From Synechococcales cyanobacterium VAR_4_metabat_354 (GTDB lineage: Bacteria; Cyanobacteriota; Cyanobacteriia; Cyanobacteriales; Chamaesiphonaceae): DNA of 35,752 nucleotides. Shown in pieces: positions 31,984 to 35,752 of the stretch. Under the pieces are notes generated by a model. That model saw only the letters and a list, made by a program, of their open reading frames with translations, did no database searches and was not told where the DNA came from. The position numbers were made by a program, and so were the translations under genes. Within the stretch, counting starts at the first letter, position 1. Each line of letters starts with the position of its first letter. The stretch spans positions 1 to 35,752 of the forward strand of contig JANOQI010000064.1 of NCBI GenBank assembly GCA_031414775.1, given 5' to 3'.

Positions 31984-32024
31984 AAAAAATACGACCCAAC
32001 TACCAAAGTTTGGTCGTATTTTTT
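31984..32024. terminator. Bidirectional terminator-like hairpin
   Basis: AAAAAATACGACCCAAC-TACCAAA-GTTTGGTCGTATTTTTT between convergent genes. Confidence 0.7.
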
Positions 32025-32738: not shown

Positions 32739-33050
32739 ATGCTAGCAGCCTATCGTACTCATGCCGCTGAACGTGCCGCCGTCGGAATTCCACCGTTACC
32801 ATTGGATGCCTCCCAAACCCAAGAATTGTGCGATCTTCTCCAACAGCCTCCCGCCGGTGAAGCCGATAATTTACTGGCTCTGATTCGCGATCGAGTACCA
32901 CCTGGAGTAGATCCAGCTGCTTATGTCAAAGCTGGCTTCCTGACTAGTATCGTCACAGGTAAAGTTACTAGTCCGCTGATTAATCCGATCAAGTCTATTT
33001 CTTTGTTCGGAACTATGTTGGGCGGTTATAACGTTCGATCCTCAATCTAA
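32739..33050 (+). pseudogene. acnB: Truncated 5' copy of aconitase B (103 codons)
   Basis: YR.H.AERA..GIPPLPLD, RVPPGVDPAAYVKA.FL, GTMLGGYNV, then stop; AcnB is normally over 800 aa. Confidence 0.9.
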
Positions 33051-33059
33051 AAATTCCAA

Positions 33060-33377
33060 TTAAGATTGGCGATTTTTCCAGTAATTTGGTTCGCGACTAC
33101 AGTGCATCACGGCTAGGATAAGAAAGTAGTCTTCTTCGATCGTGTAGAGAACTGCATAAGGAAATTTACGCACCATACATCGGCGCACGTTTTCGTCAAT
33201 CTTAGGATAGCGAGTAGAAGATTCTCGAATTCGGTAAACTGCATCCTCGATTCGGCAGAGCCGACGCTACGCGATCGAATTAATAAAAGCTTGAGCAACA
33301 TTGCTATTTTGAGTTGCATAGTATTTGACTGCTTCAGCATACTCGGCTAGCGAGTCTGGATGAAATACATATTTCAT
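33060..33377 (-). pseudogene. RelE/ParE-family toxin interrupted by an in-frame stop
   Basis: Manual translation MKYVFHPDSLAEYAEAVKYY...FINSI[A*RRLCRI]EDAVYRIRE...RRCMVRKFPYAVLY...ILAVMHCSREPNYWKNRQS*; ATGA overlap with the antitoxin. Confidence 0.9.
33248..33275. repeat. Small dispersed repeat-like insertion (20 bp plus 4-bp CGAT duplication) at a CGATCG site
   Basis: CGAT-TCGGCAGAGCCGA-CGCTACG-CGAT-CG; removing 24 bp restores an open toxin frame. Confidence 0.8.
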
Positions 33378-33604
33378 AGATCGATCGAGTTTCTAACCTG
33401 CGCTAGTGCGTCATCGCCAGAAATAACCCGCACAGTTCCATCCCGCACTTCATCTCGACGTTTCTTTGCTTCCGAACTCCAAGCCGATTGAATACTGGTA
33501 TCGATGTCAAATTCTAGGCTCTCAATTAACTTGTCTGCGAGGATTGCTCTGGATGCACTTGGCAAGGATAATATTTCTGCTGTCAATCGATCGAGTGATA
33601 TCAT
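33374..33604 (-). CDS. Addiction-module antitoxin
   Basis: EILSLP...RA.LA..LIESL...I..AW..EA.KR..E...G.V..I. Confidence 0.88.
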   Translation of the reverse strand: MISLDRLTAEILSLPSASRAILADKLIESLEFDIDTSIQSAWSSEAKKRRDEVRDGTVRVISGDDALAQVRNSIDL

Positions 33605-33663
33605 GCTTGTGTTCTCAGGTGTTAACCGTCCCTCTATTCTAACAAAATCCTTCCGCAGCGACT
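33591..33663 (-). repeat. Leader repeat copy 1 (promoter, RBS region and first codons)
   Basis: 60/73 ungapped identity to 34550-34622 by manual count; contains TAGAAT on the minus strand. Confidence 0.85.
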
Positions 33664-33782
33664 CGGTTGTTTCTAACGATCTGCTAAAGTTAATGAATGA
33701 TGCGATCGCTAATATTCAAAGTCGCATTCCTGCGTTAGAGCGGAGTCTAGAAGAAATTAAACTAGATTGGAGATTGAAATGA
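33664..33782 (+). pseudogene. 3' fragment of a hypothetical gene
   Basis: ...LLKLMNDAIANIQSRIPALERSLEEIKLDWRLK*, ATGA-coupled to the next ORF; upstream is the unrelated leader repeat. Confidence 0.4.
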
Positions 33783-33967
33783 ATTTTATCCCTACTATCC
33801 CAGATCCAGAAAAGATTAAGCAAACTTTAGCCAGAGCGCATCGAAATTGTCAGGAAATGGAGTTGGCAGGTATTCAACTAGAAGAAGTGATTGCCAACCT
33901 CGATCGAGAGATTTTGACTCAGCGAAAACAACGATTAGGAAAAGTATTAGAGCAAGGACAAAATTAG
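33779..33967 (+). CDS. Small coiled-coil hypothetical protein
   Basis: ATG at 33779 with GGAGA upstream; helical composition. Confidence 0.55.
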   Translation: MNFIPTIPDPEKIKQTLARAHRNCQEMELAGIQLEEVIANLDREILTQRKQRLGKVLEQGQN

Positions 33968-34038
33968 CACGATCGAACACTCTCATTTTAGCTTGGGGAG
34001 AAATCAGAGCTGTTTTTGTCGAAAGATAGTGCGATCGC

Positions 34039-34248
34039 TTAAACCCATTCCAGAGAAAGCTTGCGCTCAGTCCGCACACAATCTTGAAGATAAAGATTAA
34101 TTAGATTTTGATAGGGAATTCCTGTTTGCTCGGACAACTTTTGAAAATAGTCCACGACATTTTCTTCCAGATTAATGCTCACCTGTTTTTTTAACTTCTT
34201 CAGGTAAGGGTTAGGAACGGATTGTGAAAAGTCATATTCATCTCTCAT
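34039..34248 (-). CDS. BrnA-type antitoxin
   Basis: MRDEYDFS...NPY...KKQVSI.L...V.YF......GIPYQ.LINLYL. Confidence 0.9.
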   Translation of the reverse strand: MRDEYDFSQSVPNPYLKKLKKQVSINLEENVVDYFQKLSEQTGIPYQNLINLYLQDCVRTERKLSLEWV

Positions 34249-34538
34249 GTCAAATAACCTTTGTATTCTTTTTGTTCTGTTTTTGTTGCTCTACGGGCGG
34301 AAATAATCCGAATAGACTCATCATTCTCCCGATACACATGACACACTACTATCAATTTAAAAGATTCACTCATCCCTAATAGAATATGGCGATCTTCATC
34401 CTGTGAGTGGTCTGGATCGTAAGAAATACGCGCATTTGGATCGTAGAAGGCAGTTTCAGCTTCTTTAAATGATATGCCATGCTTCCGATCGTTTATCTGA
34501 GCCTTTTGCGTGTCCCAGTCAAAGGTTATCTCATCCAT
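34245..34538 (-). CDS. BrnT-family toxin (DUF497)
   Basis: FDWD..KA..N..KHGISF.EA, DPDHS..EDR..LLG, IRIISARRAT. Confidence 0.93.
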   Translation of the reverse strand: MDEITFDWDTQKAQINDRKHGISFKEAETAFYDPNARISYDPDHSQDEDRHILLGMSESFKLIVVCHVYRENDESIRIISARRATKTEQKEYKGYLT

Positions 34539-34549
34539 ATCGATCGAGG

Positions 34550-34622
34550 TCGAGTGATATCATACTAATTTTCCCAGGTTTCAACCATCCTTCTATTCTA
34601 GCAAACTCCTTCCGTAGCAACT
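34550..34622 (-). repeat. Leader repeat copy 2
   Basis: Matches 33591-33663 (60/73). Confidence 0.85.
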
Positions 34623-34767
34623 TTCATCTCGACGATCGATCCTCTTGCTCCAGAGGCTACACCAACGAATCAATCCTTACCAGAAAGACAATAAAATCAC
34701 GATCGATCGAATATTTATCATTATTTCCCATAAAAACGAAATATTGATCGTTTTATGGCTTTAGTTG

Positions 34768-35493
34768 CTACCACGGCACGGGATTGCGAGAATTGAAAAA
34801 ACCTCCTGTGAAACCGTCCTCAGATAATGTTGCTAACCACACAGGTGTATCCGCTCCTTCTTCAACAGAATGAGTTGCCGCTTCTGTACCCATTTCTGTA
34901 CGACACCAATCAGGATCGGCAGAGTTGACTTTGATATTTGTGTGCTTCAGTTCTGCTGCTAGCATGACTGTGAATGAATTAAGGGCAGTTTTAGATGAGT
35001 TGTATGCCAAGGTCTTCGCATAGTGACAGATAGGGTCGCTATGCTGTGTGAGTGAGCCACGTCCGCTACTCATATTCACAATTCGACCTCCCTCACTTTT
35101 ATGAATCAGTGGTAGCAATGCTTGAGTGATTGCAATAACACCAAAAAAGTTTGTCTCAAATGTTTTTATGATAATATTCAAACTAACTTCGCTAGACTGT
35201 TGCCCTGAATCAAGACAGATACCAGCATTATTAATCAAAATATCTAACTTGCCATACTTCTTGTCTAAGTAGCCACGAATAGACTCAATGCTTTCAGTAT
35301 CAGTCACATCTAAGCACTGAAACTCCACATCAAACCCAGCTTGCAGTAATTGATTTGCAGCAACTTTTCCTTTAGTTGCATCTCGAACTCCCATCACAAC
35401 TATGATACCTTGTCGAGCTAATTGACGACTGATTTCAAAACCAAGCCCCTTGTTAGCTCCAGTAATCAGTGCAATCTTCTGACTCGAATTCAT
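34768..35493 (-). CDS. SDR-family oxidoreductase (carbonyl reductase-like)
   Basis: TGANKGLG, LDILINNAG, YNSSK catalytic motif. Confidence 0.95.
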   Translation of the reverse strand: MNSSQKIALITGANKGLGFEISRQLARQGIIVVMGVRDATKGKVAANQLLQAGFDVEFQCLDVTDTESIESIRGYLDKKYGKLDILINNAGICLDSGQQSSEVSLNIIIKTFETNFFGVIAITQALLPLIHKSEGGRIVNMSSGRGSLTQHSDPICHYAKTLAYNSSKTALNSFTVMLAAELKHTNIKVNSADPDWCRTEMGTEAATHSVEEGADTPVWLATLSEDGFTGGFFNSRNPVPW

Positions 35494-35624
35494 AAGTGCT
35501 TTTCAAACGCGAATAATTACCAAGAACTTTCAATGAGGCTAGATACATACAGAATTTAGGCTCATTCTGTATTTAGACTAAATAACTTAAAATAGAACAA
35601 CCTAGATACAGAAGCTAAATCCAG

Positions 35625-35752
35625 ATGTTAGAAGCATATCGCCAGCATACAGCCGATCGAGCCGCATTGGGCATTCCCCCATTACCGCTCGATGCCGAAC
35701 AAACCAGTGCCCTCTGCGAACTATTACAGCAGCCACCAGCAGGTGAAGAGGC
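35625..35752 (+). CDS. acnB: Aconitase B, 5' end (runs off the window; not in the ORF track)
   Basis: Manual translation MLEAYRQHTADRAALGIPPLPLDAEQTSALCELLQQPPAGEE; TAAAAT -10 at 35588-35593. Confidence 0.9.
   Translation, partial: MLEAYRQHTADRAALGIPPLPLDAEQTSALCELLQQPPAGEE

Follow-up and report, generated by a model that had tools for sequence, protein, structure and literature searches.

Arrays whose modules are separated by pdif sites carry 28-bp dif-like sites of XerC/D in alternating orientation. Integrons and their detached cassette clusters (CALINs) also line up small modules (Cury et al. 2016, PMC4889954), and spots made of toxin-antitoxin (TA) pairs occur in Photorhabdus (PMC13617665). 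Hot spots without integrase, whose flanking core genes recombine, have been described as well (Oliveira 2017, PMC5635113). Finally, recombination at HIP1, a motif with the core CGATCG, has been reported for smtB excision, between plasmids and as HIP1-flanked deletion (PMC13756078, PMC4390886), and HIP1 raises transformation and integration in a methylation-dependent manner (bioRxiv 10.1101/2024.09.10.611283). What HIP1 does has been a question for many years, and in the cited parts of these papers the natural cases in which it served as a recombination joint amount to a few single events.

The window, i.e. the whole stretch of DNA analysed here (a complete contig of 35,752 nucleotides), ends in a TA array just upstream of acnB, and it shares its last 141 bp with contig C26, which carries the continuation of the intact acnB. 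Between a stub of the acnB 5′ end and the intact gene lie parE, an antitoxin, a truncated orfA with orfB, brnA, brnT and a dehydrogenase. We lean towards regarding this array as a hot spot that works without integrase, resembles an integron in appearance and shows HIP-core joints of unusual clarity. Its features are the following.

32739–33050, plus strand: 5′ stub of acnB, 103 aa (Aconitase_B_N); resident type over nt 1-159, Chamaesiphon type from nt 168 to about 303
32898–32905, plus strand: interval of type exchange between stub and intact acnB (a putative single crossover), 4-12 nt past a CGATCG; Fisher p 1e-11
33036–33041, plus strand: joint of the acnB stub with the parE flank, at an acnB CGATCG site that is one letter off here
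33060–33377, minus strand: parE/relE toxin pseudogene of an addiction module; intact copy in a related locus (L057)
33252–33275, minus strand: 24-nt SDR5-like insert within a CGATCG, bringing the stop that breaks parE; also in L063, site empty in L057
33374–33604, minus strand: addiction-module antitoxin, intact (PF09720)
33591–33663, minus strand: leader copy 1, a putative extended -10 promoter with the first antitoxin codons
33668–33782, plus strand: 3′ third of orfA (114 aa when whole), no named family; truncation not at a CGATCG
33779–33967, plus strand: orfB, 62 aa, coupled to orfA, no named family
33970–34038, no strand assigned: spacer E of type R1, CGATCG at both ends; includes GCGATCGC next to brnA
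34039–34248, minus strand: BrnA-like antitoxin; CopG_antitoxin PF12441 over cut-off (30.8 bits), BrnA model PF14384 under it
34245–34538, minus strand: BrnT toxin (PF04365, 95.7 bits)
34531–34563, minus strand: remnant of an antitoxin start, MISLDLDRYG*, in a frame other than that of brnT, with its stop 8 nt inside brnT
34540–34547, no strand assigned: TCGATCGA joint between antitoxin leader and brnT, 1 bp ahead of the brnT ATG
34550–34622, minus strand: leader copy 2
34623–34705, no strand assigned: spacer E of type R2, containing an SDR5-like core
34701–34752, no strand assigned: R3, conserved anchor between the TA array and a variable gene slot
34768–35493, minus strand: short-chain dehydrogenase in the variable slot; another gene is there in most relatives
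35510–35752, plus strand: upstream region of acnB, of Chamaesiphon type, with the start of the intact gene (ATG at 35625)

Modules of this array are present in 22 of the Chamaesiphon-family genomes examined, and the content differs from relative to relative at the same position upstream of acnB. The region upstream of acnB yielded no module in 8 other genomes of the window's own genus (g1) or in 6 outside genomes, several of which have short flanks there. Ten module types recur, seven of which Pfam or NCBIfam models identify as TA pairs, in some cases below cut-off. Each type keeps a fixed orientation, as observed directly for 50 of 50 copies in 20 acnB-anchored loci, 16 of them module-bearing. 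The order is not fixed: by hand count, the 44 module boundaries of 27 loci represent 34 ordered neighbour pairs, and six pairs occur in both orders. This means that the array has been shuffled, beyond mere loss of modules. The genomes being related, the array counts are not independent. Seven of the 27 loci lack a full acnB and were oriented by hand; they are excluded from the 50 copies above and included in the element count given below. One locus (L065), with a leader match and no antitoxin, was not counted as antitoxin in the module order. A small gene with no assigned function, followed by a clan AA aspartic protease (TIGR03698), is also found as a module amid the TA pairs of 5 loci (for instance L055:11509-12137 and L058:8957-9629).

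Accessory genes thus vary at a fixed place without mobility genes, with one exception: the 105 proteins of arrays and flanks include IS transposases, in 3 loci, and no other recombinase. The block had no match in the phage collection, and plasmids gave only single-module matches, on 5 of them. We found no description of a TA array at acnB, or in Chamaesiphon, in the literature searched, which largely leaves out subscription journals. As in the hot spots of Oliveira 2017 (PMC5635113, in the parts cited), there is no integrase, genes next to a core gene turn over rapidly, this flanking core gene is a recombination mosaic, and the host has ComEC, which is present in this genome. Unlike them, the acnB array has one constant flank, acnB, the far flank not being constant among genomes; its cargo consists almost only of TA pairs with a locus-specific spacer in between, and integration would duplicate the acnB 5′ end and leave stubs. 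Exchange by double crossover at both flanking core genes is what that study describes; here the far flank varies, and a single crossover inside acnB fits. The Photorhabdus clusters are likewise small, high-turnover spots of TA pairs that erode via toxin loss, but they accompany transposases and integrases, and the cited parts of that report mention neither a spacer repeat nor core-gene stubs (PMC13617665).

The main repeat of the array, overlooked in a preliminary description of this DNA, is the asymmetric spacer E of 60-105 bp. R1 and R2 are two forms of it, and R3 follows at the array edge. E lies at the slot-side edge of nearly every array and at 26 of the 44 module boundaries (one of them doubtful); truncated genes are found at many of the remaining boundaries. 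All 103 copies of E, R3 and the leader (27 loci) have one orientation. Compared with pdif sites by orientation, E never alternates, and the different module types, each fixed, point in both directions relative to it. It was absent from a 281 kb flanking control except for one weak partial match, and in 5 whole genomes it is confined to the acnB array locus, short SDR-like cores aside. Outside the family, one 27-nt match was obtained among 251 genomes of the order, few candidates being scored per genome. E types are alike within arrays (62 of 82 pairs, against 40 expected) and loosely track a weakly supported acnB tree.

These properties raise the question of an unlinked site-specific enzyme recombining at E, in an integron-like cassette system with R3-E as entry site. 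An asymmetric, locus-specific, one-directional element, with CGATCG at both ends and found at the slot-side edge and at most boundaries, would suit such an enzyme, and its homogeneity within arrays recalls attC sites, which in the cited parts of Cury et al. are more alike within than between integron arrays (PMC4889954). Nevertheless we hold this explanation to be rather unlikely. Leaving the IS transposases aside, the array and flank proteins include no recombinase; E folds no better than shuffled sequences (z of −1.97 to +0.88, against −2.0 to −3.3 for true attC), with almost no compensatory change; modules run in both directions relative to it, and many copies are partial or chimeric. A structured RNA, in the leader or in E, was also rejected (no Rfam match up to an E-value of 1, no folding signal). 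On the other hand, the likeness of spacers within arrays is not predicted by homologous exchange between lineages alone, which counts against the explanation that we prefer. A bolder proposal, to which we give a low probability, is that the lineage-specific, HIP-bounded spacer, copied from the resident R3-E at each acquisition, would be the working recombination site of a new, self-renewing TA platform, with the acnB start docking circles between genera and orfA-orfB as an undescribed TA family. If true, this would be an integron analogue built on a HIP methylation site.

The genome does contain a canonical integron, with intI beside alaS, a pentapeptide-repeat cassette and a classical attC (L097, G000:C35:92343-94608), unlinked to the array. 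Like integron arrays and CALINs, the acnB array is made of small modules, many of them TA pairs, with a repeat at most boundaries and a changing order (E at 26 of 44 boundaries, 34 orders, one orientation). Unlike them, as far as they are described in the parts of PMC4889954 cited, it has no adjacent intI, no attC fold or ends, and modules with their own leaders pointing both ways. Indeed no tyrosine recombinase lies beside the arrays among the 105 proteins, and cassettes are not mostly promoterless, since conserved upstream regions of their own were recognised, by sequence only, in 8 of 9 module types tested. The palindromic CGATCG would moreover permit inversions. For these reasons we judge that the array is not an integron, as far as sequence criteria go. 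That it is a detached cassette cluster served by the IntI of the family is most improbable. In the family, 18 of 39 genomes, among them the present one, have an IntI over cut-off, and a truncated intI is found downstream of acnB in two genomes, at 1.4 kb in G013 and about 15 kb in G020 (L098:1656-2177; L099:367-858), with a PIN-type TA pair in between; this gene near the far end of acnB is the sole link to integrons. Against this, a heuristic attC scan matched 0 of 13 arrays and 9 of 19 intI loci, and IntI over cut-off occurs in just 6 of the 22 module-bearing genomes, being absent from both 3-contig genomes. In G020, duplicated internal and 3′ pieces of acnB also lie downstream of acnB. The truncated intI, the PIN-type TA pair and these pieces suggest that the far side of acnB is unstable too.

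The preliminary description had noted that two TA operons begin with the same 73-bp leader, and all its coordinates proved correct. The two copies are identical at 60 of 73 positions without gaps; the match extends to 34540 if a 2-nt gap is allowed (E-value about 1e-14), and there is no further copy in the 3.56-Mb genome. Both copies hold the TAGAAT −10 (minus strand, 33641-33636 in copy 1 and 34600-34595 in copy 2) and the codons M-I-S-L-D, which in copy 1 run on, as claimed, into the PF09720 antitoxin. A sigma-70 scan missed this −10, its sites being no commoner than in shuffles (8 against 7.8). Neither copy has a CGATCG at its upstream edge. The leader was also considered as the 3′ end of a plus-strand gene and rejected as such: the ORF at 33504-33782 has no family, and the orfA match is limited to its last 38 codons. 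A leader pattern run against a collection of 185,579 species matched 7 records, all from Chamaesiphon, the sister genus (g2), and two patterns had no match in the metagenome contigs.

What follows the leader in relatives had been proposed as a check, and five kinds of genes were found behind 17 copies in the family arrays: 7 addiction antitoxins, 6 brnT, 2 parD, 1 other antitoxin and 1 DUF6737. Both parD fusions reach parD via a short antitoxin remnant, and the fusions to brnT, to the second antitoxin and to DUF6737 (3 of the 4 kinds) switch at the same CGATCG, in antitoxin codons 4-6. The first antitoxin codons are kept in all 17 leaders, and TA(A/G/T)AAT after TG in 16. Leaders are not clustered according to the gene behind them: antitoxin leaders and brnT leaders share 0.84 identity on average, against 0.83 and 0.86 within these groups, and leaders 98% identical are found ahead of different genes (a leader tree on 62 columns was poorly supported). 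Stand-alone antitoxin genes in g1 have an upstream region loosely resembling the leader, with a CGATCG within the first codons in 2 of 4, and stand-alone brnT genes have unrelated ones. We therefore read the leader as the addiction antitoxin's own putative promoter and start, which other genes would have captured via deletion.

The second copy would be a case of such capture. The gene order, BrnT and then a ribbon-helix-helix antitoxin, fits BrnT/BrnA. As previously claimed, homology ends at TCGATCGA (34540-34547), leaving MISLDLDRYG*, and the brnA stop directly adjoins GCGATCGC (34031-34038). In all 6 brnT copies the vestigial peptide is read in another frame, and its stop lies 8 or 13 nt inside brnT. 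From such framing, the preliminary description had derived a model in which crossover takes place at bare HIP1 cores and TA cassettes lacking a promoter are exchanged behind one already in place. The framing of brnTA is indeed unusual, as just 38 of the 2076 long ORFs of this genome have a CGATCG within 20 nt before their ATG, and 34 of 2076 within 20 nt after their stop. This is with CGATCG at 1 per 422 bp genome-wide and 1 per 132 bp in the array. Proximity of TA boundaries to HIP1 above background therefore stands for brnTA, but does not generalise: among nine module types tested, a CGATCG precedes 5 of 44 starts, all brnT, and the other 39 have none within 20 nt. Nor does brnTA move alone: all 6 array copies of brnT whose start is intact, from two genera, come with the leader, and GCGATCGC belongs to the longer spacer E, of which it forms the end.

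As a general rule the bare-core model is thus largely refuted, and we hold it to be very unlikely. It would account for the one CGATCG break shared by the fusions to brnT, the second antitoxin and DUF6737, for the 6 array copies of brnT without an upstream region of their own, and for the CGATCG found within 20 nt of the 3′ end in 15 of 54 modules; but the 39 starts without CGATCG have their own conserved leaders, 8438 genomic sites leave the location at acnB unexplained, and a palindromic site of 6-8 bp sets no direction, so that inversions would be allowed, yet 0 of 50 modules is inverted. Of cassette exchange at CGATCG, what holds is that the leader switches genes and that joints are enriched in CGATCG; the recombinase, the attC and the inverted modules are missing. 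The model survives as the deletion step of our preferred explanation.

How far joints coincide with CGATCG was measured in several ways. Among junction classes, 15 of 87 hold the full hexamer, against 2.7 expected. In arrays, 101 of 777 homology ends fall on CGATCG (13% against a 2.7% background), and in flanks 14 of 250 do (5.6% against 2.1%). Since ends outside the arrays are enriched as well, part of the signal may be genome-wide or an alignment bias; that most array ends lie off CGATCG is a further point against the preferred explanation. TCGATCGA is the commonest octamer in the genome, in line with the pattern reported for Chamaesiphon in the cited part of PMC4390886. As in the reported HIP1 events, the joints lie at the CGATCG core and the family favours TCGATCGA; unlike these events, as described in the parts cited, they recur at one locus family-wide and build promoter fusions and acnB stubs (PMC13756078, PMC4390886).

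Many intragenic CGATCG matches turned out to be insertions rather than rearrangements. These SDR5-like inserts, 22-24 nt long and in both orientations, lie inside CGATCG at 15 sites in this genome and are 10 times denser in arrays than in flanks. Filled and empty sites are seen in parE, the antitoxin, orfB and acnB, with insertion between CG and ATCG. The same insertion place characterises SDR5 (Elhai et al. 2008, as cited in PMC4390886 and PMC13756078), to which we liken them by place and not by sequence; SDR5 is 21 nt long, and the present family is non-heterocystous. The acnB locus thus offers a family-wide series of joints in filled and empty forms, making the roles of the CGATCG core, of methylation and of RecA testable on defined sites.

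Evidence for transfer comes from acnB itself. Up to nt 159, the Chamaesiphon majority base is found at 44 differing sites in the intact gene and at 2 in the stub; from nt 168, at 7 sites in the intact gene and 26 in the stub. Stub and intact gene are thus directly seen to be reciprocal mosaics, switching within one 8-bp interval that lies outside the nearby CGATCG. Parts of the block are 86-96% identical to Chamaesiphon copies, against about 72% for the acnB body. The acnB 5′ end, the only place examined in this way, is mosaic in this genome (G000) and in G001 and G007. A misassembly with a co-occurring Chamaesiphon was rejected, because the depth of the block equals that of the host flank in three metagenome runs and contigs span the joints; all four runs come from one study, and X1 and X2 may be the source samples. 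No circle was seen among contig joints, which cannot reveal rare forms. We infer that the mosaic is the footprint expected of a 2886-bp Chamaesiphon-type circle integrated by a single crossover, or else of a double crossover with a stub-bearing donor, which would produce this mosaic too, since distant genera have few identical stretches and crossovers between them gather there.

Seven acnB stubs were found in six genomes, and every one of the 7 ends on a CGATCG site or next to it. Four different sites (4) are involved, and sites of this kind make up 15% of the region. In L063, the parE flank is joined to an R3 element at a CGATCG. An SDR5-like insert is present at the joint in 5 of the 7 stubs, so the insert rather than the bare hexamer may make the joint, and two joints share ~10 bp around the core (microhomology). 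The stubs of L055, L060, L069 and L075, from two genera, have a related insert at acnB nt 153, which suggests that some stubs were inherited together with the array. These data also bear on the possibility of an old, inherited TA cluster decayed by random deletion and tandem duplication, its CGATCG joints resulting from motif density and SDR5-like insertions. TA clustering and erosion are known (PMC13617665, in the part cited), but decay alone does not explain the reciprocal acnB mosaic, the transfer into this genome from another genus or the six pairs of modules seen in both orders, nor can intergenic CGATCG density account for stub ends located inside a gene. We regard it as unlikely.

Our preferred explanation, which we find somewhat more convincing than not, is an acnB-anchored, integrase-free hot spot in which homologous recombination and CGATCG-centred microhomology reshuffle the TA array. 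A CGATCG of the array would first join one in the first 300 nt of acnB, and a circle would be excised that carries TA modules together with the gene of the slot and the promoter and beginning of acnB. The DNA would then enter a relative, probably via natural transformation, and a single crossover in the conserved acnB 5′ end would restore a full acnB and leave a stub. Modules would be reordered through recombination between spacers, leaders and shared genes; deletions, some starting from the CGATCG in antitoxin codons 4-6, would bring brnT and others under the antitoxin promoter; and SDR5-like inserts with random deletions would erode the modules. Array turnover is thus likely due to ordinary recombination between short direct repeats, and CGATCG is likely a joint for deletions and excised circles, not an integron-like insertion site. 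In that case, no integrase is needed for a TA array resembling an integron to form and to pass from one genus to another, the beginning of a core metabolic gene serving as its landing pad.

Some other features of the locus deserve mention. The slot between R3 and the acnB promoter holds, depending on the genome, DUF6745, HNH, HEAT repeat, DUF4261, a dehydrogenase or one of several genes of no assigned function, and looks like a one-gene replacement slot. The orfA-orfB pair is the commonest array module (14 of 27 loci), and across cyanobacteria an ORF of 59-77 aa begins at the orfA stop in 17 of 19 loci with an orfA relative (L141-L156). No Pfam, NCBIfam or PADLOC family matched the pair, and PADLOC, run on 18 proteins, matched 2, generic HNH and coiled-coil only. 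Just 1 of 7 orfA 5′ truncations falls on a full CGATCG, which speaks against CGATCG as a general joint. This unnamed gene pair is a candidate new two-gene TA system. Finally, outside the array, an 18-nt inverted repeat with a 5-nt loop (31984-32024) lies between convergent genes and is likely a two-way terminator.
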